A stretch of 64,000 nucleotides of DNA from Candidatus Uhrbacteria bacterium RIFOXYB12_FULL_58_10 (GCA_943359455.1 CALRHL010000001.1:21184-85183); one strand, 5' to 3'. Shown: positions 4,705 through 62,581, counted from the stretch's first letter. Notes: generated by a model from the sequence alone, not told the origin. Numbers and translations are program-made.

Positions 4705-6285
4705 ATGCATCTATCTTTTCAACGAGCCGTTGGGTTCTTATGTGTGACGGGTTTTGCGCTGTTCGCTTTATTGACTTCTGTCCATGCATCGATCATTGAT
4801 AGTGTCCGCGGATATATTCTCTTACAAGTTGAGCAGCATGGAGAGGCGTGGTATGTCCCGCCCGATCTAGAAACGCGTTACTATCTCAAAGATGGAACAG
4901 CGGCATACGAAGCACTCCGAGCATTCGGACTTGGAATCACTGATGCCGACTTGGCAACAATTCCTGTTGCTGGTGAAACAGCAAGTTCTGCAACGACTGA
5001 CTCGGCACTCGTCGACCGTGTTTCTGGATATATTTTGTTACAGGTCGAACAGCATGGAGAAGCCTGGTACGTTCATCCCAAAACCGGGACACGAACATAC
5101 ATGGAAGATGGTGATGCCGCATACACAATCATGCGACAACTCAGTCTTGGAATTACCGACGCGGACTTAGAACAAATTTCTATCCATGAAGATTCCATCG
5201 ATCCAAACGCGAGCACAGACGGATCAACCGTTGCCTTTTTCTATCAGTATGTCGGTGCCCTCATGAACGGAGTTGGAGATAATGGTGTGCGACTTGGTTT
5301 GACAACAGACTCAGAAGCGATCAGCACATCTCTACTCGAAGCGCTCGACTGGGAAGTTCGAACAATAGAACTTGAAGCATCGGACGAAACTGAAGATGAA
5401 GAACAATCCTATGGCGATCCTGTTTTTAGCCGCCTGAGCAATGGAAATTGGGCCATGACTTCTTGGAGTGGAAGCGACGATCCACGTGGCGCAAATGTAT
5501 TGTTGTACCATGAGTCCGAATGTCCTGTTGTTGATGACGACGCCGTTGTCGCGATAACGGCATCTTCTGAATCTGGCTGTACAAACGTACGAGCCCTCAC
5601 CGTTGGAAAAACTTCACAAATTTTCGAAAAAGACGGCAATGATTATGTCTTTCACTCAAATGGAGGTGATGTGTATCTTGCGCAACTAACAGACGACGAT
5701 CAGACTGCTTTAGAGTTGGATTCATTGTGTGTATTATCCTCCCCTGTTGATGCATTTTCTGAACTAAATTATGGCGAATCCACAAAAGTGCTTGATGGAA
5801 GTGATGAAGGACTTTTGTTTAGCGACACGGCCATAGGGCAGCGTGAAGATGGAACATGGGTGCTGTTTGCAAAGGGGATTGAAACTGATTCCGGATGCAC
5901 GAGCACAACGTTGTGTGAATTGTGTGGGCGATCAATCTATCGCGCAACCAGTTCAGATCTCATTGATTGGTCAACACCAGAAGAAGTCGTTGAACAAGCG
6001 AGTGTTCCGGAAGCGTACGTCGCAAACGATGGCAAAATTTGGCTCTATCACCAAGATTTTAGCGACGTGTGTGATGCACAAGATCAACATCTCGCAACGA
6101 TCGCGCCTGTCACTGGTCACTACGAGGCAGAAGAAACATACGAACTGTCCGACCCGATTCGCGTAGAATTCTTAGACGAAGCATTCCAAACAAACTCTAC
6201 CATCCACTACGCGACCAACGGGAATCCAGTATCGTTACCAGACCAAGAAGCCGTCGAAGCACTCGAAGCATGTGCCAACATGTAA
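4705..6285 (+). CDS. secreted protein with two tandem ~70-aa repeats (GYILLQVEQHGEAWYV...DGxAAY...LGITDADL) and a C-terminal beta-propeller-like region
   Basis: signal peptide MHLSFQRAVGFLCVTGFALFALLTSVHAS; internal duplication read directly; Asp-box-like segments. Confidence 0.5.
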   Translation: MHLSFQRAVGFLCVTGFALFALLTSVHASIIDSVRGYILLQVEQHGEAWYVPPDLETRYYLKDGTAAYEALRAFGLGITDADLATIPVAGETASSATTDSALVDRVSGYILLQVEQHGEAWYVHPKTGTRTYMEDGDAAYTIMRQLSLGITDADLEQISIHEDSIDPNASTDGSTVAFFYQYVGALMNGVGDNGVRLGLTTDSEAISTSLLEALDWEVRTIELEASDETEDEEQSYGDPVFSRLSNGNWAMTSWSGSDDPRGANVLLYHESECPVVDDDAVVAITASSESGCTNVRALTVGKTSQIFEKDGNDYVFHSNGGDVYLAQLTDDDQTALELDSLCVLSSPVDAFSELNYGESTKVLDGSDEGLLFSDTAIGQREDGTWVLFAKGIETDSGCTSTTLCELCGRSIYRATSSDLIDWSTPEEVVEQASVPEAYVANDGKIWLYHQDFSDVCDAQDQHLATIAPVTGHYEAEETYELSDPIRVEFLDEAFQTNSTIHYATNGNPVSLPDQEAVEALEACANM

Positions 6286-6418: not shown

Positions 6419-7056
6419 AACTACAATCAACGTCGTCTTCCGACGCGCACAGCTCCCTGAACGGGGAGTTTTGCGTTATATGGATGATTTTTCCGCCCTT
6501 TACCGTGAGGTTCGTGAGCAGTTTTCGCATGATGTAGTCGAGGTCGGCCATGCTGTCTATTTTTCGCGCAAGGTTGGCGATGTTTCGGAATAGTTCGACA
6601 AATTCTTCCATGCTGGCCATGGCGTCAGTCGAGGCCTCCTTCACCTTCTTGAGCGTTTTGATTTTCTCGGCGAGTTCCAGCGACGCGGCCACGTCTTTCT
6701 GCACGTCGCGTTTGAACTCGCGCCGCAGGTCGGCGTCGGTCTCCCCGCGCAGCAGCTCCTTGTTTTCCTCCCGTCGCCTGTCGGTGCTGTTTTTACGCGC
6801 CACGAGCGATTTGAGCTCGTCCTTCGCCTCCTTCGCGCGTTCCACGGCTAGCCGCTTCATCTCCTCGACGTAGTGTGCGTATCCGGCCTTCGTACCCAGG
6901 GGATGCCTGTCCAAAAATGCGTAGACGGCTTCGAGCACCGCCTTCGCCCGCACCTCTTCCTTCCCGCAATTTGGCTGCTTGCAATCGAAATAGTAGTAAT
7001 GGGTTTTCGTCCCGTCCTTTTTTGGTTTGGCGGTGATGCTCGGGTACATCGGCTTC
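6378..7056 (-). pseudogene. C-terminal fragment of a large serine recombinase (zinc-ribbon plus coiled-coil region only); N-terminal catalytic domain missing, truncated by the IS insertion; 3' end overlaps tRNA-Glu
   Basis: THYYYFDCKQPNCGKEE zinc-ribbon-like motif followed by charged coiled coil; no resolvase catalytic domain; reading frame runs into the IS left terminal repeat; local GC clearly higher than neighbouring DNA. Confidence 0.5.
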
Positions 7057-8021
7057 TGAACCGTACCCCAAAAAGTGGACACGAAAGTGTCCGTTTTTTG
7101 TGTCTATAGATAATTCAACTAAGATGAATGGGTATGAGTAATCGAAGATTCACTGAAGAAGAGATGGAGGTGCTGTCACAACACATGTACGTGCGGAGAT
7201 GTAGCGAGAAATCTGTAACGTACACCAAGGAATTTAAACTGTTTGCCGTCAGGCAATACAACGAAGTATTTCTTCGAGGGAAGGCCAAATATGGTTGGAG
7301 GACGATTCAGATGAAACTTCTGGAAAAAGAGGTCGTCATGAATCACAAAAAGATCATTCGCATTAAGAATAAGTATCATCTCGTCACCAAGATCCGAAGG
7401 CACAACCCGTACAAGATGATTATGAAGAAATCGCTGGAACATCGTACGTATGAAAACATATTGAATCGTGCCTTTGACGTCCTTACTCCTTTCAAGATAT
7501 TTACCACCGACATCACCTATATCCCGCTCAATTACCGTTTTGCCTACCTGTCCGTCGTGAAGGATGTCGCAAGCGGCGAAGTCGTGGCCTGGAACCTGTC
7601 TATGCATCTGGAAATGAGCCTGGTGCTCGATACCGTGGAGGCTATGAAGAATAACCCGGTTCTCACTCCAGTCATGCTTCAAGACGTACTGATTCATTCC
7701 GACCAAGGTTTCCACTACACCAACCCGCTCTATATCGAGAAGATCAAAGGATTGCAGATGGTTCAATCTATGTCGAGACGTGGCAATTGCATCGACAATG
7801 CGCCTATTGAATCGTTCTTTGGACATCTAAAAGACGACGTGGACTACAAAGACTGCAAGACTTTCGACGAACTTCATTCACTCATCTCAAATTACATGCA
7901 ATACTACAACAATGAACGCCAGCAGTGGGGACGAAAAAAGATGACTCCTGTGGGATACAGAAATCATCTTTTAACAACTGCGTAGGTTTTTACCAGTGTC
8001 TACTTTACGGGGTACGGTTCA
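7057..8021 (+). mobile_element. IS3-family-like insertion sequence (~965 bp) with 26-bp imperfect terminal inverted repeats tgaaccgtaccccaaaaagtggacac / tgaaccgtaccccgtaaagtagacac; no clear target-site duplication
   Basis: terminal repeats read directly; encloses a single transposase ORF; left end carries hairpin plus T-run. Confidence 0.7.
7128..7985 (+). CDS. IS3-family transposase (HTH plus DDE/rve integrase core in a single ORF)
   Basis: HSDQGFHYT and SRRGNCIDNAPIESFFGHLK motifs of the IS3 OrfB integrase core. Confidence 0.85.
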   Translation: MGMSNRRFTEEEMEVLSQHMYVRRCSEKSVTYTKEFKLFAVRQYNEVFLRGKAKYGWRTIQMKLLEKEVVMNHKKIIRIKNKYHLVTKIRRHNPYKMIMKKSLEHRTYENILNRAFDVLTPFKIFTTDITYIPLNYRFAYLSVVKDVASGEVVAWNLSMHLEMSLVLDTVEAMKNNPVLTPVMLQDVLIHSDQGFHYTNPLYIEKIKGLQMVQSMSRRGNCIDNAPIESFFGHLKDDVDYKDCKTFDELHSLISNYMQYYNNERQQWGRKKMTPVGYRNHLLTTA

Positions 8022-9140: not shown

Positions 9141-9923
9141 TTAGGCGTTGGAAAAGATTTTGAAAAACTGTTTCGTGTTGGCAATGTCGTCGTACTCCTG
9201 ATGATTAAACAGCGAGCCTTGGGCGGTTCCGGATTGCACGACGACGGAAGTATATTCGACTTCGTACGCACGGCTGAACCGCTGTGCGTTTTGCACTAAA
9301 CCTGGCATCTTGGCACGATCAGTAATCGACATGAGCACTCCTTTCAAAGTACGATCGCTTTTGATCTGCAGAACATGGCCAATGGACCAGTCTTTGGAAG
9401 GAACGATGAGGTCGACACTGAAATTTACATCTTCGTCGACTGTACTTTCCAAAACAGTGTAGTCTGCACAAAGAAGAGTCGTGACAACGTGAGCTTCTGC
9501 AAGCGAGCCAGCAATCGCAAGCTCGAAAAGTGGTTCGTTTGATGTGCGCGCGAGTACGAACAAATGTTCGAGATCTGACGGCTTCATTCCAACCATTCCA
9601 CGGACAAATTTTTTGATCCCTCCACAGTTATGGTACACATCGTCTTTTACGAAATGTGTTGTCGCGTGAGGAAGCAGATTGCGACGAGCGTATCCACACA
9701 AAAATGCACCTTGAAGCAAATAGCTCAATCCAACATCGGATGAATCGATCAAATCCTGTTGACCATCAAACAGCGATCCAACATAGGTACCGCCATGATG
9801 AAATGCTGTGAGAATCCGATTGAGGCTTTGCGCTGAACATCGATGAGGTTCAATAGGCAGATAGTGCTCAGTGTGATACGAAAGCGAATGAGCAAGTATA
9901 TGTTGTGCACGCAAAGGAAACAC
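9141..9923 (-). CDS. hypothetical protein
   Basis: ORF track only; no recognisable motif. Confidence 0.4.
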   Translation of the reverse strand: MFPLRAQHILAHSLSYHTEHYLPIEPHRCSAQSLNRILTAFHHGGTYVGSLFDGQQDLIDSSDVGLSYLLQGAFLCGYARRNLLPHATTHFVKDDVYHNCGGIKKFVRGMVGMKPSDLEHLFVLARTSNEPLFELAIAGSLAEAHVVTTLLCADYTVLESTVDEDVNFSVDLIVPSKDWSIGHVLQIKSDRTLKGVLMSITDRAKMPGLVQNAQRFSRAYEVEYTSVVVQSGTAQGSLFNHQEYDDIANTKQFFKIFSNA

Positions 9924-10057
9924 GTTTTCTCCTTGAAAAGACCGCGGTTCGAGGATTATTCAAGAGTCAGCCCTGGAGACGAATGGGCCAACAGCCACCA
10001 GAGAACCATCCCCGAACCACGGTTAAATGAGGATACAGGAAAATATCTGACTGGTCA

Positions 10058-21316: not shown

Positions 21317-21440
21317 ACAAGCTCCTCAGGGTGGTGCGAACGATATCACTGACGAGGAAAAAAATCAAAAAAATACGCTCCCGCTAAATTCTATCGGGAG
21401 CCACTTAGCCTGACCGTCCGAGAAACAAAAGGAGCTCATT

Positions 21441-21603
21441 AGACCTGTTGCTGTATAAGCTCCAGCCAAAAACGTCATATTTCGCCAAACTCTCGGTAAA
21501 ATATTTTTGGCTTAGCTTAGGCTAAACAAAAAATATTTTACCGTCGACTTTGTCTGAAATCTGCCATTTTGGATCAAGGATCTTATACAGCAACAGATCT
21601 ATT
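21441..21603. repeat. ~160-bp element with 23-bp imperfect terminal inverted repeats (agacctgttgctgtataagctcc / ggatcttatacagcaacagatct), an internal 14-bp inverted repeat (ggtaaaatattttt/aaaaatattttacc) and a possible 3-bp ATT flanking duplication
   Basis: read directly; overlaps the 3' end of hicA. Confidence 0.4.
21509..21525. repeat. AGGCTTAAGGC-like repeat copy (ggcttagcttaggctaa) in the loop of the element above
   Basis: read directly. Confidence 0.3.
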
Positions 21604-22211: not shown

Positions 22212-22267
22212 TGAACCGTACCCCAAAAAACGGACACTGTCGTGTCCACTTTTTGGGGTACGGTTCA
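22212..22267. repeat. 56-bp near-perfect palindrome made of two inverted copies of the terminal repeat of the IS at 7057..8021 (miniature IS-end element)
   Basis: right half is the exact reverse complement of the 26-bp left terminal repeat of the IS; left half differs at 2-3 positions; 4-nt spacer tgtc. Confidence 0.6.
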
Positions 22268-22303: not shown

Positions 22304-26227
<3,924 letters not shown>

Positions 26228-26231
26228 ATGA

Positions 26232-29200
26232 TTATTTAATCTTCTTCTCTCCTGACAACTCGACCTTTTTACCATCCTTCATGAGTTCGACATCGAGACA
26301 CAGACCCTTCAACTCACGGATGAGCACATTAAATGATTCTGGAATGTTTACTTTGCGAATCGGTTCGCCTTTGATAATGGATTCATACGCTTTTGAACGC
26401 CCGACGATATCATCAGATTTGATCGTAAGGATTTCCTGCAACATGTGCGCGGCACCGTACGCTTCGAGTGCCCATACTTCCATTTCTCCAAAACGCTGTC
26501 CTCCAAACTGTGCACGTCCACCAAGCGGTTGCTGGGTGATGAGCGAGTACGGACCGATTGAACGTTGGTGAATTTTGTCTTCAACCATGTGTGAAAGTTT
26601 GAGCACGTACATGTATCCAACGGTAATCTGGTGGCCAAACTTTTCTCCGGTACGACCATCGAACAATGTCGACTGTGCACTCTTGTTGAATCCAGCACGT
26701 TCGAGCTCTCCATGAATCTGAGATTCTTTTACTCCATTCAAGACAGGAGTCGCCGCGCGATACCCAAGAGCATTTGCCGCAAGTCCAAGGTGAACTTCCA
26801 AAATCTGACCAAGGTTCATACGTGATACCACACCAAGAGGAGTGAGAATCACGTCGGCTGGTGTTCCGTCTTCCAAAAACGGCATATCTTCGACTGGCAC
26901 GAGTTTGGAAATAACACCTTTGTTTCCATGGCGTCCGGCAACCTTGTCACCAACCTGAATCTTGCGCATGTCTGCAACCGAAACTTGAATTTGTTTAATC
27001 ACGCCTGGATTAAGTTTGTCACCCGCTTCACGTGAAAACATTTTAATATCCACGACTTTTCCATGCTCACCATGTTCGAGATACAACGAAGAATCACGTA
27101 CATCACGTGCCTTTTCTCCGAAAATAGCACGAAGCAATTTTTCTTCGGCAGACAATTCCGTTTCTCCTTTCGGCGTAATCTTTCCAACGAGAATATCACC
27201 AGATTTTACCTCTGCTCCAATGCGAATGATCCCTTCAGAATCGAGGTTCTTCAACTTGTCTTCCGAAACGTTTGGAATGTCTGAGGTGACAATTTCCGGA
27301 CCAAGTTTTGTATCACGAACATCGATCATGTAGTTTTCAATATGCACCGAAGTATAGCGATCATCATGAACCAACCGTTCGCTCATAATAACGGCATCTT
27401 CAAAGTTATAGCCGTCCCAGCTCATAAACGCGACGAGTACGTTTTGACCGAGCGCCATTTCTCCTTTATCGACCGCAGACGAGTCAGCGATAACTCCACC
27501 ACGTTTAACCTGATCGCCAGGCATGACCACAGGACGCTGGTTGATACAGGTCGAATTGTTTGAACGTAAAAACTTTTTCAGCTCGTATTGGAAGACGTTA
27601 TTTTGTTTGTCTGTCACGTGAATCATCCCGCCATCGATTTTCGAAATCACTCCATCTTGCTCGGCAACAATCACATGTCCAGAATCTTTTGCGGCACGAT
27701 ATTCAATACCAGTTCCGACAATTGGTGCGTCTGGTTTAATCGTTGGCACCGCCTGACGTTGCATGTTCGTTCCCATGAGCGCGCGCGTGGCGTCGTCATG
27801 CTCCAAAAATGGAATGAGCGCGGTGCCGATCGAAACGATTTGTCGGCTCGACACATCCATATAATCTACTTCATTTTGGGTCACCACTTTTGGCTCACCA
27901 AATTTTCGACCACCAACCATATCATCTACCAAGTATCCTTCTTCATCGACTTTCACCGTTGCTGGAATCGTAACCGAACGCTCTTCTTTGAAGGCGTTAA
28001 TATATACAATTTCATCTGTCACGCGTGCTCGTTCCTTTCCGTCTTTCATCTCCTTGATGACCTTTCGATACGGCGTTTCAATAAACCCGTAGTCGTTGAT
28101 AACTGCGTAAGAAGAAAGATGGGCCACGAGACCGATGTTTGGTCCTTCTGGGGTGGCGATTGGACAGATACGACCATAGTGCGTTGGATGCACGTCGCGT
28201 ACTTCAAACCCAGCGCGTTCGCGAGAAAGCCCACCTGGACCCATCGCGGAAAGACGACGTTTGTGCTCGAGCTCTGAAAGCGGGTTGGTCTGATCCATGA
28301 ACTGAGAAAGCTGAGACGACATGAAAAACTCACGCACCGCACCAATCACGGGACGTGCGTTAATGAGACGACCTGGAGACAACGTTTCCATGTCGAGCGT
28401 CGACATACGATCTTTAATGATGCGCTCCATGCGAGCAAGACCAACGCGGAAACGACCCTGAATCAGTTCGCCAACCGCGCGCACACGTCGGTTTCCGAGG
28501 TGATCAACGTCATCTGGTTCTTCTTGGGTAATGTTGAGACGAATGACCTCCTTAATAATGTGAACGAGATCTTCTTTTGTAATAATGCGATTTTCTTCTG
28601 GAGCAACATGTTCGTCCGTTGTATCTAAATTGAAACGTAAGTTGAATTTATAGCGTCCAACTTTTCCAAGATCATAACGATCGAAGTTGAAAAACATCGA
28701 GTGGATAAGTCCACGTGCGTTGTCAGGAGTTGCGAGATCGCCTGGACGAATACGTTTGTAAACTTCCGTGAGACCTTCCTCCTCGTTTTTTGCCGCATCT
28801 TTTGCAATGGTCGCTTCGATGTAGTGGTTGGTTGGATGCGTATCAACATCTTTAAACAACGCAAGAATTTCCTCGTCGGTGTGATATCCAAATGCACGCA
28901 TGAGGGATGTAACGGCCACTTTACGCTTACGATCGATCTTCACCCAAATAACATTTTTTGGATCCGTTTCAAATTCCAACCATGCGCCACGGTTCGGAAT
29001 AATTTTTGCTCCGTAGTAGCGACGACCACGATAAACTTCTCCGGTGAAAAACGCTCCCGCTGAACGTACGAGCTGTGCGACAATGACCCGCTCGATGCCG
29101 TTGATGATAAACGTTCCGCGAGGCGTCATGATCGGAAGGTCACCAAGATAAATTTCCTGCTCCTTTGTGACGCTTGTGCGTTTATTCACGAGACGTGTTT

Positions 29201-29684: not shown

Positions 29685-29845
29685 GTGGAAGGACTGGGGA
29701 TTGTCAAGGATTGCTAGAATTTAGCTAAACTGAGCATAAAACTCATTTTAGAAAGGCTGTCAAATGGAGGATATACCGATGTTATGCACAGAAAAAATGT
29801 ACTAATGAAATACGAATTAGATGCAACCTACATCCATAAAATACC

Positions 29846-29999
29846 CCATCCAAAGCTGCAAGGCACGGCCACGATACGAAGAGTCAAGACGCTATTTTTG
29901 AGCGGAGGAGAGAGCCTTTTTTCCGACGCCCGTGGGCACCAGAAATCGCTCGCAACATCGTTCTGACAAAATCGTGCCATCCCTCGCAGCTTTGGATGG
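29846..29999. repeat. ~155-bp element bounded by 14-bp perfect (24-bp imperfect) inverted repeats ccatccaaagctgc / gcagctttggatgg
   Basis: read directly. Confidence 0.35.
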
Positions 30000-30040
30000 A
30001 GTATGGAAACATCTCTGTACATACGATGATACTCCTGCGA

Positions 30041-45410: not shown

Positions 45411-46541
45411 ATGAATTTTAGTCGTGTACAATCTATCGAGGATGTTTTATCACCTGGAAGGGCTTTGATTGTTTATGGTCCCAGACGAATTGGAAAAACT
45501 ACGATAGTCACCGCCTTTTTAAAAAAGGTTGAGCAGTCAGGAAAACGTGTGTTATATAGGGTTGGAGATGATATTCGTTTACAGGAACTATTTAACTCAC
45601 AGGTTCGAATGGACATTTTAGAATTTGCCCGTCCACATGATCTCATCATCATCGATGAGGCTCAAAATATTGAGAAGATTGGTATTGCGACGAAAATGAT
45701 CGTCGACGCAATGCCAGAAAAAACGCTTATTTTGACAGGCTCTTCGTCGTTTGATATTGCCAACAAGGTTGGTGAGCCACTCACTGGACGCCATTTCACC
45801 ATGACACTTCTTCCAATAACACAGGCCGAAATCAATGAAAGTGACTTTGAGAAGCGTCAACGACTTGAAGAATTTCTGGTCTTTGGTTCTTATCCAGAAG
45901 TGCTTGCCCTAAAAACGAGAGATGAAAAAATTCGCGTTCTTCGGGAACTTGTTGCTTCCTATTTGTTCAAGGATATTCTCGTTCTTGATCGAATTCGATC
46001 TCCAGAACTGCTTTTAAAAATAACGAAATGTTTGGCATTCCAAATTGGAAATGAGGTTTCCCTCCAAGAAATTGCCCGCACGACAGGAACGGATGCCAAA
46101 ACAGTACAACGATACATTGATCTCCTTCAAAAAACCTTTGTGATCAAACGAGTTGGTGGATTTAGCAGAAATTTACGAAACGAAATATCAAAACGTTCAA
46201 AGTATTATTTTTATGATCTTGGGGTTCGAAATGCTGTTATTGAACAATGGAATGGATTGAATGATCGCAACGATATAGGTTTTCTTTTTGAAAACTTCCT
46301 CGCAATGGAGTTCACCCGTGCTGCCAATATCGCCGATCGTCCTGATCAACTGTATTTCTGGAGGACACACTCAGGACAAGAAGTCGATTTTATCATCGAA
46401 CGGGAAGGAAAACTCTTTGCTTACGAATCCAAATGGTCAAAGAAGCCATCACGTTGTCTCAAACAATTCCTTTCAGTTTACCCAAATGCAACAGGTGAAA
46501 TTATCACAAAAGAAAATTATCTCGATACGTTACAAAAATAA
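45411..46541 (+). CDS. AAA-superfamily ATPase with C-terminal DUF4143-like domain
   Basis: P-loop GPRRIGKTT; Walker B IIIDEAQ; C-terminal YFWRTHSGQEVDFIIE pattern. Confidence 0.7.
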   Translation: MNFSRVQSIEDVLSPGRALIVYGPRRIGKTTIVTAFLKKVEQSGKRVLYRVGDDIRLQELFNSQVRMDILEFARPHDLIIIDEAQNIEKIGIATKMIVDAMPEKTLILTGSSSFDIANKVGEPLTGRHFTMTLLPITQAEINESDFEKRQRLEEFLVFGSYPEVLALKTRDEKIRVLRELVASYLFKDILVLDRIRSPELLLKITKCLAFQIGNEVSLQEIARTTGTDAKTVQRYIDLLQKTFVIKRVGGFSRNLRNEISKRSKYYFYDLGVRNAVIEQWNGLNDRNDIGFLFENFLAMEFTRAANIADRPDQLYFWRTHSGQEVDFIIEREGKLFAYESKWSKKPSRCLKQFLSVYPNATGEIITKENYLDTLQK

Positions 46542-47465
46542 CTTCCCTGCTGGAAACAGCATCACATCTTCGATCGACTTTGCTCCGAACGCGATCATGT
46601 GGAGGCGGTCGATTCCGAGGGCGTTGCCGTAGGAAGGGTTTTGGATGTTTGGGAGAAGACGAAGTAATTCCTCGTCGAGCGGGAAGACGGTTTTGCCGAG
46701 TGCGCGGCGTTCTTCGGCTTCCTCGATAAACCTTCTGCGCTGTTCGTCCACGTCCGTTAGTTCTGTAAATGCATTGCACAGCTCAAGACCATCTACATAC
46801 AATTCAAATCGTTCGCCGTATTTGCCGTCTGCAGTCAGGCGAGAAAGAGATGCCTGATAGATTGGGTAATCATAAACGAAGACAGGATCTACACCTAGAT
46901 TTGGTTCGATCTTGTTGAGAAACGAGCGATGGAACGCATCAGAGTCTGTGTCATCACCAACATGCTCAAGATGTTCGAGATCAAGACCTGCTTGTGCAAA
47001 AAGATCAACAATGCGGATACGACGAAAGGGATCGGGCGGGAGATTCGGACAGACCGCCTTCACGAGTGCTTCTGTTTCGTCCATGCATGTCTGATAATCT
47101 GCACCTTGTTGGTACCACTCAAGCATCGTGAATTCTGGGTTGTGGGTCGAAGATCCTGAGCCTGTCGAAAGACCAAGCTCTTCCTCGTTTCGAAATACTT
47201 TTGTGAGCGTAAAAATTTTGTCCATCCCAAGTCCAAGCAGTTTCTTCATTGAATACTCCGGACTGGTGATCAGAGCCACAGCGTGACATGTCTTATCTGG
47301 CTCAATCACGGTTGTCTCAAACGGAACAAGATTTGGTTCCATGCCGGGTGACCTAACAACAATCGGCGTCTCGACCTCGATATAACCTCTCGATGAAAAA
47401 AAAGAACGGATCGTGTTGTTCACGATCTCGCGTTCTTTTGCGATCATTTGAATATCGCGAGCCAT
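46530..47465 (-). CDS. epmA: EF-P lysine34--(R)-beta-lysine ligase EpmA (class II LysRS paralogue, catalytic domain only)
   Basis: class II aaRS motifs: FRNEE (motif 2), GNALGIDRL (motif 3); ~310 aa with no anticodon-binding domain. Confidence 0.75.
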   Translation of the reverse strand: MARDIQMIAKEREIVNNTIRSFFSSRGYIEVETPIVVRSPGMEPNLVPFETTVIEPDKTCHAVALITSPEYSMKKLLGLGMDKIFTLTKVFRNEEELGLSTGSGSSTHNPEFTMLEWYQQGADYQTCMDETEALVKAVCPNLPPDPFRRIRIVDLFAQAGLDLEHLEHVGDDTDSDAFHRSFLNKIEPNLGVDPVFVYDYPIYQASLSRLTADGKYGERFELYVDGLELCNAFTELTDVDEQRRRFIEEAEERRALGKTVFPLDEELLRLLPNIQNPSYGNALGIDRLHMIAFGAKSIEDVMLFPAGKLFL

Positions 47466-59690: not shown

Positions 59691-59810
59691 CTACTGCGCG
59701 ATCAGACTGACGAGCACGCCGATTACGAGCATGGCGACCATGCTGCAACCATCCGTCGACTCTCCACCGATGCGAACGATGTCACTGACGATTTGAACGA
59801 ACTGAGTCAT
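59691..59810 (-). CDS. small TM protein whose ATG overlaps the CHAP gene stop (ATGA)
   Basis: MTQFVQIVSDIVRIGGESTDGCSMVAMLVIGVLVSLIAQ. Confidence 0.25.
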   Translation of the reverse strand: MTQFVQIVSDIVRIGGESTDGCSMVAMLVIGVLVSLIAQ

Positions 59811-60415
59811 TGTGTCTCCTGAAGTTGTGGTCGACTCCAGCCGGCCACGGGTTGTGGATAGGTGCCCTGATGAACGGACCATCCGTTACCTGAGCGAGAA
59901 ATCGGCAGGCTGTCCTGCCAGTTGTAACGACAGACGAAGAAAAGCTGACACGAGGTGAAATTCTGCTGAATGAACTCCACTCGATCATCAAGCACGCGTG
60001 AGATGACAGCGATGTGTCCAACCGTTCCGTCGGAATCACCGCCATCGAACACGAGAGCGTCCCATGGCTCGGGACGAACATCCCCACCATTTGTGTATGA
60101 CACGAGACCTTTCTCTTTCGCATACCAGTAGTACGAATCTGCGTGTCCTGTTTGCGTGAGATTTCGATGTCCATGCTTTTCAACAAAGACACGATTCACG
60201 AGCTCTACACACTGGTATTCGAGTCCAAACTGTCCGCGATCGTCTCCACCATTTGCAGAGAAAACCTGAATCCCATCAACCTCGCCAAGAATAGTACCAT
60301 GTGGAGGGAGGGAAAATCGATAACCGCTCGCCCAGATTCTTACTACGTTTATCGCACACATCATGATGGAGAAAACCATCATGAGTGCAGCCAGCCGTTT
60401 TACAACGGACCACAT
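59807..60415 (-). CDS. CHAP-domain peptidoglycan hydrolase (amidase/endopeptidase)
   Basis: N-terminal signal/TM; catalytic Cys in YQCVELVNR and His in VGHIAVIS. Confidence 0.75.
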   Translation of the reverse strand: MWSVVKRLAALMMVFSIMMCAINVVRIWASGYRFSLPPHGTILGEVDGIQVFSANGGDDRGQFGLEYQCVELVNRVFVEKHGHRNLTQTGHADSYYWYAKEKGLVSYTNGGDVRPEPWDALVFDGGDSDGTVGHIAVISRVLDDRVEFIQQNFTSCQLFFVCRYNWQDSLPISRSGNGWSVHQGTYPQPVAGWSRPQLQETQ

Positions 60416-61374
60416 GATTCCTCCTTTTCTACAAACTGCGGATACATATCGTACCCGTTGCGTGACCAGTGAAGCAAACTGCGTTCAACCAATGCGTCGA
60501 GTCGCTCGGTGTACGCGGGTGGTGTCAGGTAAAACCGTCGAGGAAACACGAGCGCGTGGCTCAGCATCTCGTACGGCATCACATTCTGACAAAACGCGAG
60601 TTCGCGATCGGTCTTTGGCAGACGCAAATTGCGTCGCTTTCCTTTCGCATGAACACGAGAAATCCAAACGGGTTGCAACTTCCCATCCGCGAACAGTTCG
60701 TCAACGGTTTCGTAATAGAGCGGGTCCACTCCAGCTTCGCGATGAATGAAATGAATCACTCGACCACGAACCCAGAGCGCGACATGAGAATTGATATCTT
60801 TCCCAGCCGCAACCACCTCGTCCCAATACGTCGTGTCTTCCCACAGCAGTCCGATCATGTACACCTGTGTTGGTTCGAAGTTGAATTGCCGAACCGCGTC
60901 TTGCAACTCGATCTTCACACCAGGTGCGAGCTGACCATCCGTGTTGTAACGCGCAGTTTCATCCCACACCGTGGTGAGCTTATCTGCGTTTGAAACACAG
61001 GTCGTACAATCTTCACCCGTTGCAATATACTTGGCGCGCTCGGTGCGAACGGTCCACGCACTTGCATGAACGAGCTTGATGCCTGTTACAAGCACGATGT
61101 ATTTCACAACGGTTGCCGAACACATCGCATTGTCCATTTCCCACCAAGGCAAAAACCTCGGCAGTCGTCCAGTACGTTCAATGTAATTGAGCAACGCCGA
61201 GTGATCCTCAGCCGAAAGCTTGTCGACAGACTTCCAAAAGACAAGCTCCTCCGCACGCGTCTCAGCCTTCACCTTTGGATAGTGAAGATAAAGCAGCGTC
61301 AAAATCGTCCCAAACACCCCAGCAAACATGCACAGGATGCTGGCGATTCGGTTCAAACCGAGTCGATATCCCAT
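60400..61374 (-). CDS. membrane-anchored hypothetical protein, possibly a papain-like Cys/His peptidase
   Basis: N-terminal TM; candidate dyad NAMCSATV ... SHVALWVRG; weak. Confidence 0.3.
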   Translation of the reverse strand: MGYRLGLNRIASILCMFAGVFGTILTLLYLHYPKVKAETRAEELVFWKSVDKLSAEDHSALLNYIERTGRLPRFLPWWEMDNAMCSATVVKYIVLVTGIKLVHASAWTVRTERAKYIATGEDCTTCVSNADKLTTVWDETARYNTDGQLAPGVKIELQDAVRQFNFEPTQVYMIGLLWEDTTYWDEVVAAGKDINSHVALWVRGRVIHFIHREAGVDPLYYETVDELFADGKLQPVWISRVHAKGKRRNLRLPKTDRELAFCQNVMPYEMLSHALVFPRRFYLTPPAYTERLDALVERSLLHWSRNGYDMYPQFVEKEESCGPL

Positions 61375-61400: not shown

Positions 61401-61429
61401 AGTGTATCTAAAAATTTGCTATTTGTCAA
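61401..61429 (-). promoter_or_regulatory. minus-strand promoter TTGACA-17-TACACT with aggtga RBS, immediately downstream of the long palindrome
   Basis: read from the reverse complement. Confidence 0.45.
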
Positions 61430-61529
61430 CCGTAACCACCCCTTAGCCCCTCCTTGAAAAGGAGGGGAGCAGAGTTTTCCAGAAAACAAACTCCCCTCCT
61501 TTTCAAGGAGGGGTCGGGGGTGGTTACGG
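61430..61529. repeat. 100-bp composite palindrome: outer 13-bp arms ccgtaaccacccc/ggggtggttacgg enclosing two mutually reverse-complementary hairpins cccctcctt-gaaa-aggagggg (AAGGAGG SD-like) around a gttttc-cag-gaaaac centre
   Basis: read directly. Confidence 0.6.
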
Positions 61530-61540
61530 CATCAGATAAT

Positions 61541-62581
61541 TCAGTCCAACACCGGGTGTTGGCTGACACGGGAGAGTTCGGATGCAGTGCGCCTTGCCTC
61601 CTTCATAAACCGGTCAAGTTCTGCGCGTTTTGATTCGTAATAAGCTGTCCCGTGAATTTTTGTTCGTTCTAGTGCTTGAAATGCTTTTGCAAAACGCTCT
61701 TCAAACATACCAATATCAAATGCTCCGTCTCGCAAACGATTTCTGAGAAGAACCTCTTTTGGCGGGAGACGTGTTTCTTTTACAAGACGAACGAAACTGA
61801 GCAGTTGCAAAATGTAATAACTTGCATCAATTTCCCACCAATAAAATCCTTGACGTGTTGACGATCGATAGTGATGATGATTATTGTGCCATCCTTCTCC
61901 AAGAGTGATGAGTGCAAGAAACCAGTTGTTGCGACTTGTGTCAGATGTCGCAAAGCGGCGACTGCCAATCACATGAGAAAGTGAGTTGATGGTAAACGTA
62001 CCGTGATAGAGAAGAACGGTTGAAAGAAAAAACCCGATGAGAAGCGCGCTCCATCCTCCGAGCATGAGAATCGTGATCGCGAGAAGTGTTGGGGGAACGA
62101 GAGGATATTTGTCGAGCAAGCGCAATTCAGGATAGGACGCAAAATCTCGAATGCGATCCATGGGTGTTGTTTTGAATTTGTCACACAAAAACCATCCAAC
62201 ATGACTCCACCAAAATCCACGACGTGGTGAGTGAATATCTTGAGGCATGTCTGAGTACAGATGATGATCGCGATGGTGACCCGCCCACCAAAGCACTCCC
62301 TTTTGCGCAGACATCGTTCCACCAAGTGCCATCACAAATTGCATGACGCGCCCCAGCTTATACGAGCGGTGCGCGAAGTAACGGTGATAACCAGCGGTAA
62401 TAAAAAACATGCGAACGATGTACAGAACGATACACAAGATGATGTCCATGAGATGTATCCCTGTCATAATCGCAAGCAAAGGCGCGAGATGCATGAGAAA
62501 AAATGGAACAGACTTCACCCAATTCACTCGTTCATCCGAAGATCTTTTGTACAATATATTCATAGCGAGACCAGTATACAC
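61541..62581 (-). CDS. membrane fatty-acid (acyl-lipid/acyl-CoA Delta9-type) desaturase
   Basis: three His boxes HRYFAH, HHRDHH, HNNHHH plus TM segments. Confidence 0.85.
   Translation of the reverse strand: MYTGLAMNILYKRSSDERVNWVKSVPFFLMHLAPLLAIMTGIHLMDIILCIVLYIVRMFFITAGYHRYFAHRSYKLGRVMQFVMALGGTMSAQKGVLWWAGHHRDHHLYSDMPQDIHSPRRGFWWSHVGWFLCDKFKTTPMDRIRDFASYPELRLLDKYPLVPPTLLAITILMLGGWSALLIGFFLSTVLLYHGTFTINSLSHVIGSRRFATSDTSRNNWFLALITLGEGWHNNHHHYRSSTRQGFYWWEIDASYYILQLLSFVRLVKETRLPPKEVLLRNRLRDGAFDIGMFEERFAKAFQALERTKIHGTAYYESKRAELDRFMKEARRTASELSRVSQHPVLD

Follow-up and report, generated by a model that had tools for sequence, protein, structure and literature searches.

The 100-bp palindrome at positions 61430-61529 of the window (the whole 64-kb stretch of DNA that was analysed) is, judged from its sequence, very probably an inverted pair of class II purine-motif triplex motifs of the BoxC/PIT/TM class, and as such a generic intergenic element. 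Each unit of the pair comprises a pyrimidine arm of 9 nt, a 3-nt loop, the complementary purine arm, also of 9 nt, a linker of 3-4 nt and a 9-nt G/T strand that mirrors the purine arm. When the G-rich strand is single-stranded the hairpin is expected to form and the tail to fold back into the major groove, antiparallel to the purine arm, with G.G-C and T.A-T reverse-Hoogsteen triplets predicted for the window sequence. DNA becomes single-stranded in the template of lagging-strand synthesis, in transcription bubbles and when supercoiling drives extrusion. As the two units lie on opposite strands, their tails could instead pair with each other, which makes them the outer stem of one 100-nt hairpin. 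We read the element as a lineage-wide repeat and not as a device of the neighbouring operon; it is located at a synteny breakpoint, with the conserved promoter of that operon immediately downstream.

Anatomy and folding of the palindrome

The palindrome is built of the following parts.

61430-61529, both strands: whole composite palindrome, read here as two class II intrastrand triplex motifs in inverted, "tails-out" order
61430-61442 and 61517-61529: outer arms, CCGTAACCACCCC and GGGGTGGTTACGG
61447-61467 and 61493-61513: two 9-bp hairpins, CCCCTCCTT-GAA/TTC-AAGGAGGGG
61468-61492: A/T-rich central spacer with a 5-bp mini-hairpin, GTTTT (61474-61478) / AAAAC (61483-61487)

A near-perfect palindrome of 100 bp, in which outer arms enclose two hairpins, had been described in the sequence-only reading, and we confirmed it at these positions with a fold z-score of about -12. 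The perfect inverted repeat reaches 23 nt (61447-61469 / 61491-61513), and symmetry is broken at two internal loops (TTAG versus TCG and CAGAG versus AAA). Its centre had been given as gttttc-cag-gaaaac; the actual structure is a 5-bp GTTTT/AAAAC stem with the 4-nt loop CCAG. Read inwards, the central spacer places a U-rich tract behind each hairpin. Each strand folded as RNA into one hairpin of about 100 nt, at -83 to -84.5 kcal/mol (z = -12.2 and -11.7), and 0 of 200 shuffled sequences folded as well. As DNA the palindrome folded at -47.8 kcal/mol (z = -13). The programs used for these folds consider Watson-Crick pairs only. For the 21-mer hairpin, 0 chance matches are expected in a window of 64 kb, and no second copy of the palindrome was found within the window. 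The palindrome is not an assembly artefact: two assemblies made independently, L001 (NCBI MAG GCA_943354615.1) and L002 (ENA), carry it complete and with the same sequence. Two short-read unitigs (L003 and L123) break within it, as expected of palindromes.

Both halves follow the rule for class II triplex motifs

According to the class II rule (ITxF, Holder 2015, PMC4666352), a pyrimidine arm, a purine arm and a reverse-Hoogsteen strand follow one another consecutively, 5' to 3', with a stem of 6-15 triplets, no more than one mismatch and loops 1-6 nt long; the third strand runs antiparallel to the purine arm and makes solely G.G-C and T(A).A-T triplets. The window pair shows this block order, keeps within the limits for stem and loops (its loops are of 3 and 3/4 nt) and uses these triplet types only. 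Both halves have the layout CCCCTCCTT-N3-AAGGAGGGG-N3/4-GGGGTGGTT, with the following parts.

61493-61525, G-rich strand plus: triplex-motif unit A, full sequence CCCCTCCTTTTCAAGGAGGGGTCGGGGGTGGTT
61493-61501: pyrimidine (Y) arm of unit A, CCCCTCCTT, followed by the loop TTC
61505-61513: purine (R) arm of unit A, AAGGAGGGG
61514-61516: linker of unit A, TCG
61517-61525: third strand of unit A, GGGGTGGTT
61434-61467, G-rich strand minus: triplex-motif unit B, hairpin 61467-61447
61443-61446: linker of unit B, CTAA (TTAG on the plus strand)
61434-61442: third strand of unit B, GGGGTGGTT (AACCACCCC on the plus strand)

The ACGG at 61526-61529 is the lineage-typical 3' extension of unit A. The "outer arm" mirrors the purine arm at 9/9 positions, with G opposite G and T opposite A, and setting GGGGTGGTT against AAGGAGGGG gives six G.G-C and three T.A-T triplets. 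Both units therefore reach 9/9 triplets with 0 Watson-Crick and 0 Hoogsteen mismatches. When the 64-kb window was scanned with the class II rule, the two halves were the sole sites, and none appeared in 20 shuffled windows. The anatomy that had been ascribed to the outer arms stands, and their interpretation changes: more than a third stem, each is the third strand, in mirror repeat, of a BoxC/PIT/TM-type triplex motif.

Three other structures were considered and rejected. Outer arms that are a mere third stem do not fit the units found elsewhere, most of which are single yet bear a tail. A pyrimidine-motif triplex, which would be compatible with RNA, was discarded on the grounds that the C-rich tail has A opposite the A-T pairs, where T/U is required. 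A G-quadruplex was judged on paper: each strand has two runs of at least four G, and NMR excluded a quadruplex for TMECO.

The unit is widespread and its third strand covaries with the stem

A scan for CCCCTCCTT-NNN-AAGGAGGGG over one genome per species gave more than 119 loci. The matches listed include many Patescibacteria and, besides them, Chlamydiota, SAR324, Bacteroidota, Gammaproteobacteria, Nitrospirota, Acidobacteriota, Planctomycetota, Verrucomicrobiota and Chloroflexota. Among these matches GGGG[T/A]GG lies beside 105 of 143 hairpins, on one side, which indicates that the "outer arm" belongs to the unit. Their consensus is CCCCTCCTT-N3-AAGGAGGGG-linker-GGGG(T 53% / A 46%)GG-T(97%)-T(51%), in which a linker of 3 nt is the commonest and conservation ends behind the tail. 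The bases of this tail profile are exactly those that the purine motif permits opposite G and A. Since most units among the matches listed are single, with the complementary partner absent within 220 nt, the tail is more than one side of an outer stem.

We also examined the hairpins with other arms in the same loci (n = 72, with 18 arm types). A perfect 8/8 mirrored tail lay at most 8 nt away in 44 of them, as against 7.7±2.5 when stems were permuted (maximum 16 in 1000 permutations) and 10 under a direct-repeat rule. The third strand thus covaries with the stem, as in the following pairs of arm and tail.

AGGGGAGG with GGTGGGGT
GAGAGGGG with GGGGTGAG
AAAGGGGG with GGGGGATT
AGGAGGAG with GAGGTGGT
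GGAGAGGG with GGGTGAGG

Most long linkers (32 of 47) themselves close into a hairpin, 12-49 nt in length and arbitrary in sequence, which holds the tail next to the base of the first hairpin. At least five different unit sequences occur within 8 kb of one genome (L043). The extensions past the tail are genome-specific: TTACG here, GAATTACG in Permianibacter and TAGAG in Nitrospirales. Inverted pairs were found in both arrangements, tails-out (L008, L020, L059, L071, L085 and L117) and tails-in (L012, L057 and L093).

Among the matches listed, units are mostly intergenic; they often lie between genes that converge or run in the same direction and seldom between divergent ones. Across phyla these same matches showed no orientation bias of the units relative to genes, no neighbour gene common to the loci (all-against-all BLAST of 735 ORFs) and no family-wide T enrichment behind the hairpin. 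A protein-coding or peptide repeat was rejected, given linker lengths that vary out of frame and a Thiomargarita array with a period of 41 nt. Searching the window and 18 loci against Rfam 15 at gathering score returned no family match; ranked by E-value, the element hit only sub-threshold generic long-hairpin miRNA models. Literature searches with the raw sequence strings of the element retrieved nothing relevant.

The pair abuts a conserved promoter at a synteny breakpoint

The genes on either side of the palindrome and the promoter beside it are all read from the minus strand.

61541-62581, minus: fatty-acid desaturase gene (PF00487, E = 1e-16), the upstream gene
61401-61429, minus: sigma-70-type promoter of the ORF324-CHAP operon, with -35 box TTGACA (61429-61424), 17-nt spacer and -10 box TACACT (61406-61401)
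60400-61374, minus: ORF324, the downstream gene, Uhrbacteria-specific and with no Pfam family
59807-60415, minus: CHAP-domain gene, its start overlapped by ORF324

The desaturase stop codon lies 11 nt from the palindrome. The exact desaturase protein has no database record because gene calls elsewhere use other start codons. On the other side, the -35 box was found to abut the palindrome directly, as had been noticed before. The promoter matches 10 of 12 consensus positions, and the earlier proposal of a TTGACA-17-TACACT promoter proved right: TTGACA-16/17-TAnnnT is kept in the orthologous ORF324 loci at a similar distance to the ATG, with TTGACA invariant, a spacer of 16-17 nt and TAnnnT as the -10 box. 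This conservation extends over four loci, L123, L124, L126 and L128 (94, 72, 71 and 59% protein identity). The ORF324 homologues point to an organism near Candidatus Uhrbacteria.

In L124, L126 and L128 similarity stops exactly at TTGACA; the palindrome is absent from these orthologous loci, and what lies upstream is not the desaturase gene but ychF or some other gene. L123, the relative at 94% identity, contains both the proximal unit and the promoter. Downstream, the orthologues keep the order CHAP, methyltransferase, rpsF, ssb, epmA, efp, ykuD. These comparisons put the pair at a synteny breakpoint, outside the conserved control region. Units also lie in frame inside epmA, in two relatives only.

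These observations bear on the idea that the palindrome is a binding platform for a dimeric or tetrameric regulator, that is, a locus-specific operator controlling the ORF324-CHAP promoter or the desaturase gene. In favour of such an operator is the dyad symmetry directly abutting the -35 box. However, the orthologous operons keep their promoter without the palindrome, and the module is a generic one, present in more than 119 species of many phyla beside unrelated genes. Moreover, mirror symmetry is meaningless for a protein that binds duplex DNA, and no regulator gene lies adjacent to the palindrome in the window. We therefore regard an operator as barely credible and abandon the platform in favour of a pair of triplex-motif units.

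A possible role in transcription termination

A transcription terminator or insulator between the two transcription units had also been suggested. Two sites of the pair are relevant to this suggestion.

61481-61513, minus: candidate intrinsic terminator of the desaturase transcript, hairpin 61513-61493 followed by AGUUUGUUUUCU (61492-61481)
61447-61482, plus: weaker mirror-image terminator-like site, antisense, hairpin of -16.1 kcal/mol followed by AGCAGAGUUUUCCAG, with a U tract of 4 nt

The desaturase transcript meets, in this order, a C-rich tail, a 9-bp hairpin (-15.9 kcal/mol as RNA) and AGUUUGUUUUCU. A G+C-rich hairpin with a U tract behind a gene, the sequence hallmark of an intrinsic terminator, is thus present, and a consensus terminator scan matched 61513-61493 followed by AGTTTGTTTT. 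The U tract behind this desaturase-side hairpin is interrupted and begins 2 nt past the stem. Nearby genes use ordinary hairpin-plus-U terminators, and in the relatives the corresponding place, just in front of the same promoter, is occupied by a canonical terminator, whose loop in L126 includes the -35 box.

From its sequence, the first half of the pair might terminate or stabilise the desaturase mRNA and so insulate the ORF324-CHAP promoter. For this role we see about an even chance, because PIT elements did not terminate transcription in E. coli, the family shows no T enrichment behind the hairpin and the U tract is interrupted. In the desaturase mRNA the first hairpin and the U-rich spacer would serve as an intrinsic terminator or 3'-end stabiliser; a terminator here would separate the desaturase unit from the ORF324-CHAP promoter, and the symmetric copy would do likewise for antisense transcription. 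The earlier suggestion is plausible as regards the hairpin followed by AGUUUGUUUUCU, set against the report that PIT elements had neither promoter nor terminator activity in earlier work in E. coli (PMC4666352).

The whole palindrome could, on the other hand, be an ordinary bidirectional intrinsic terminator, in which two convergent hairpin-plus-U terminators share the A/T-rich centre, the outer arms merely lengthen the stem and the triplex potential is incidental. Its position between two co-directional transcription units, the terminator-like match on the minus strand, the presence in either direction of a hairpin of about -16 kcal/mol with a U-rich tract behind it and the canonical terminator at the equivalent place in relatives all agree with this. 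What it leaves unexplained is the mirror rule, which holds at 9/9 positions in both halves and according to which the tail covaries with the purine arm in the mirror sense, although mirrored, covarying tails are needless for termination. Across phyla, moreover, the module occurs as single units that have neither a partner arm nor T enrichment. A bidirectional terminator is consequently very unlikely as the explanation of the element, and termination may still be a secondary, local role of the triplex-motif pair.

Many units in a related organism

Metagenomes were scanned for AAGGAGGGG-N2-6-GGGGTGGTTACG, which led to 77 loci, many of them contigs of one sample and of one related organism. YchF of this organism is 70-74% identical to that of the Uhrbacteria-like loci L124, L126 and L128, and its methyltransferase is 58-62% identical to those of the window and the same three loci. 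The identities of these two proteins place the organism near the window lineage. There, near-identical units adjoin assorted housekeeping genes (ruvB, dnaJ, tpiA, fba, ftsI and recG). Near-identical units on many contigs of a related organism are in essence what the sequence-only reading had set down as evidence against a locus-specific regulator.

In this organism units in the C-rich orientation lie 9-15 nt upstream of start codons, 21 against 4 in the other orientation, and the AAGGAGG arm probably serves there as the Shine-Dalgarno (SD) sequence. In the window, each hairpin had been thought to sequester such a sequence. No gene start lies behind either hairpin, and this claim is dropped; the SD resemblance in the window is a by-product of the purine arm.

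The same data bear on a role at the RNA level, either as a stable RNA or 3'-UTR hairpin that guards the desaturase mRNA or as an SD-sequestering switch (a thermometer or riboregulator). The RNA hairpin is very stable, and the placement of C-rich units before start codons in the related organism (21 versus 4) speaks for such a role. Against it, neither window hairpin is followed by a gene start, Rfam holds no such family, and across phyla the units have no orientation bias relative to genes. In addition, the tail rule fits the purine motif and not the pyrimidine motif, and a purine-motif triplex is reported not to form in RNA (PMC4666352). There is accordingly only a slim chance that the element works at the RNA level.

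The multiplicity of copies could also mean that we are dealing with a non-autonomous mobile element of the MITE or REPIN type, inserted upstream of the promoter. The units would then be terminal inverted repeats whose folded single strand is recognised by a trans-acting transposase such as a RAYT/IS200-like Y1 enzyme. Near-identical units on many contigs of the related organism fit this, as do the genome-specific conserved extensions past the tail, the varying presence and absence of units among orthologous sites, the in-frame epmA units in two relatives and the Y1_Tnp-like genes in L124 and L178. Yet these Y1 genes are unflanked by units, and none adjoins the window element, so that a RAYT association was not found at these loci. 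The palindrome has the inverted termini of a MITE but no target-site duplication at its ends (TGTCAA/CCGT...ACGG/CATCAG). Among the matches listed, no neighbouring gene family is common to the 119 loci, and the presence of at least five unit sequences within 8 kb (L043) fits selection for the fold better than copying from one master. Holder et al. likewise found no link of the E. coli motif to mobile elements (PMC4666352). On this evidence a mobile element is unlikely. Mobility is compatible with the assignment to the BoxC/PIT/TM class and concerns solely how the units spread.

Implications

The immediate consequence of assigning the palindrome to the triplex motifs is that a false lead is removed: it is in all likelihood no operator or riboregulator of the cell-wall-hydrolase operon, and the promoter beside it is genuinely conserved. 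No function has been assigned to BoxC/PIT/TM elements in the 30 years or so that they have been known, and the present observations could make their biology more testable. Beyond the existing descriptions that we found, these observations offer as leads the conservation across phyla including CPR, the covariation of the third strand and the hairpin inserts in loop 2. To these leads may be added the in-frame coding insertions and the directional placement before start codons, with the arm as a probable SD.

It is conceivable, if rather unlikely, that triplex-motif units form one pan-bacterial class of single-stranded DNA elements that is selected for its fold and extends beyond Enterobacteria and Cyanobacteria. 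Hints in this direction come from the covarying stem types (at least 18), the occurrence in many phyla including tiny-genome CPR, the 12-49-nt inserts in loop 2, the in-frame units in epmA and the directional placement before start codons in one Uhrbacteria-like organism. If this were true, the units would be modular intergenic cassettes (terminator, ribosome-binding site, insulator), maybe spread via recognition of folded single-stranded DNA, and the window pair would be one cassette at a rearrangement junction. These wider points draw on loci outside the window and are meant as leads, not as established results.

Comparison with known systems

One half of the window pair resembles an intrinsic terminator: past a stop codon comes a 9-bp hairpin rich in G+C and then a U-rich tract. 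It differs in that this tract is interrupted and set off from the stem by 2 nt, and in having extra conserved tails and a second copy. With H-DNA the units have in common the reverse-Hoogsteen chemistry of G.G-C and T.A-T triplets and the logic of a mirror repeat. H-DNA, however, arises from one mirror repeat in a duplex and leaves half a strand unpaired, whereas the units consist of three consecutive blocks on one strand, combining an inverted and a mirror repeat, and would fold alone.

The units also resemble REP, BIME and REPIN sequences, which are short extragenic hairpins with a conserved flank, occur singly, as inverted doublets (long hairpins) or in arrays, and are enriched at gene ends and between convergent genes. 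REPs carry a GTAG-type 5' tag, which units of the window type lack. In addition, the flank of the units mirrors the stem and covaries with it, whereas the flank of REPs does not, and the stem sequences of triplex-motif units are diverse within one genome, unlike those of REPs.

The closest match is the BoxC/PIT/TMECO group. The class II intrastrand triplex motif was first noticed as BoxC, was described as the PIT element by Hoyne et al. in 2000 and was studied as TM/TMECO by Holder et al. in 2015 (PMC4666352). Our scan recovered the E. coli motif from 5409 of 5426 complete genomes, with a median of 18 places in each. Its consensus is CCCTCNCCC-N3-6-GGGNGAGGG-N3-GGGNGAGGG (PMC4666352). As single-stranded oligonucleotides TMECO forms a stable triplex by CD and NMR, with a Tm of 70-82 °C, and a stable triplex was undetected in duplex DNA or in vivo (PMC4666352). 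TMECO is intergenic, with no strand bias and no tie to a gene class; inverted pairs make up 5 of the 18 TM sites of MG1655; and loci containing a TM are more rearranged among strains than control loci (PMC4666352).

Several differences separate the window pair from this group. The primary sequence is not the same (CCCTCNCCC/GGGNGAGGG/GGGNGAGGG in TMECO versus CCCCTCCTT/AAGGAGGGG/GGGGTGGTT in the window), and the window element, departing from the TMECO consensus, represents a different sequence family that shares the predicted fold. TMECO has been reported solely from Proteobacteria (PMC4666352), in contrast to the window variant, which occurs in an Uhrbacteria-like CPR genome and in many other phyla. 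The hrpB-mrcB pair of MG1655, which we read directly, is an 85-nt composite palindrome between co-directional genes with its units tail-to-tail ("tails-in"), whereas the window pair is tails-out. Finally, the window pair has a U-rich spacer and may terminate transcription, whereas PIT elements without a U tract did not.

The likeness lies in the block layout. Both have a 9-nt C-rich arm, a loop of 3-6 nt, a 9-nt purine arm, a 3-nt loop and a 9-nt G-rich mirror strand, with the same triplet types, an intergenic location and no strand bias. In both the units occur singly or as inverted pairs, the latter forming composite palindromes of about 85-100 bp between genes, and both are tied to locally rearranged regions. 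As in the BoxC type, the window pair is intergenic and inverted; the 64 kb contain this one pair, and a related organism has many copies.

Triplex-motif units ahead of start codons

The scan of metagenomes recovered many near-identical triplex-motif units in an organism related to that of the window (L131-L207, chiefly contigs of samples Ga0208373 and Ga0075999). These have the layout …CGTAACCACCCC-TAG-CCCCTCCTT-AAA-AAGGAGGGGG-ACCGGA…ATG and are found ahead of housekeeping genes, 9-15 nt before the start codon, with an orientation bias of 21 versus 4. At these start-codon-proximal units the purine arm is probably the Shine-Dalgarno sequence. Upstream of the units a GGGGGTTACRAG segment is able to pair with the C-rich tail.

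Triplex-motif units within epmA

Units were also found in frame within the coding sequence of epmA, a tRNA-synt_2 paralogue adjoining efp, in two Uhrbacteria-like relatives:
L124, 18662-18694, in-frame triplex-motif unit in epmA
L128, 16280-16315, in-frame triplex-motif unit in epmA
Both lie at the same variable loop, but their sequences differ (TCCCCCCT/AGGGGGGA/AGGGGGGGT in L124 versus CCCTCTCCTT/AAGGAGAGGG/GGGTGAGGT in L128), and the encoded peptides are FPPAKGGLRGG and SPLLQKERDRVRS, respectively. The epmA genes of a third relative, L126, and of the window (46533-47465) have no triplex-motif unit.

Sequences preceding the ORF324 promoter in relatives

In L126 the intrinsic terminator of ychF (9925-9975) consists of CCGGCCGA…TCGGCCGG followed by a T run; its loop holds the -35 box (TTGACA) of the conserved promoter ahead of ORF324, and its T run forms the promoter spacer. 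In L124 the ORF324 promoter is preceded by a 365-nt intergenic region (9636-10001) with a canonical terminator inside. The same region includes a stretch that, judged from its sequence, may be tRNA-like (…GGGAATTGAACCC…).

Y1 transposase-family genes and other inverted repeats

Two Uhrbacteria-like loci carry both triplex-motif units and an IS200/RAYT-like Y1 transposase-family gene:
L124, 333-1004, Y1 gene, weak PF01797 match
L178, about 976-1750, Y1 gene, weak PF01797 match
The two genes are 31% identical to one another, and neither is flanked by triplex-motif units. In the window itself, three other long, intergenic inverted repeats were found, none of which is a triplex motif:
21440-21601, arms of 24 nt separated by 114 nt, with another palindrome, of 23 nt, between them at 21494-21543
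22212-22267, hairpin with 26-nt arms, just past the 3' end of the 1323-aa gene (22304-26275)
29841-30004, 29-nt arms 106 nt apart

Diversity of triplex-motif units

In a Thiomargarita sp. MAG (L071), five or more units are repeated in tandem every 41 nt at 7048-7330 (CCCCTCCTTACCAAGGAGGGGTTGGGGGTGGTTAAGTTCCT), and a separate tails-out pair lies at 5892-5964. The whole 8-kb locus from Nitrospirales chromosome OY820905.2 (L043) contains at least five different sequence classes, with the purine arms AGGAGGGG, AGGGGAGG, AAAGGGGG, AAGAGGGG and AAAGAGGG, each having its own mirrored tail. In addition, a closed hairpin, 12-49 nt long and of arbitrary sequence (for example TGGCGCGAAGCGCC), often takes the place of the second loop, with the G-rich third strand directly 3' of this hairpin; loci with this arrangement include L004, L006, L010, L014, L036, L039, L060, L064, L065, L081 and L103, among others. 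Published searches for triplex motifs allow loops of 1-6 or 0-10 nt, limits that these hairpin-insert variants exceed.
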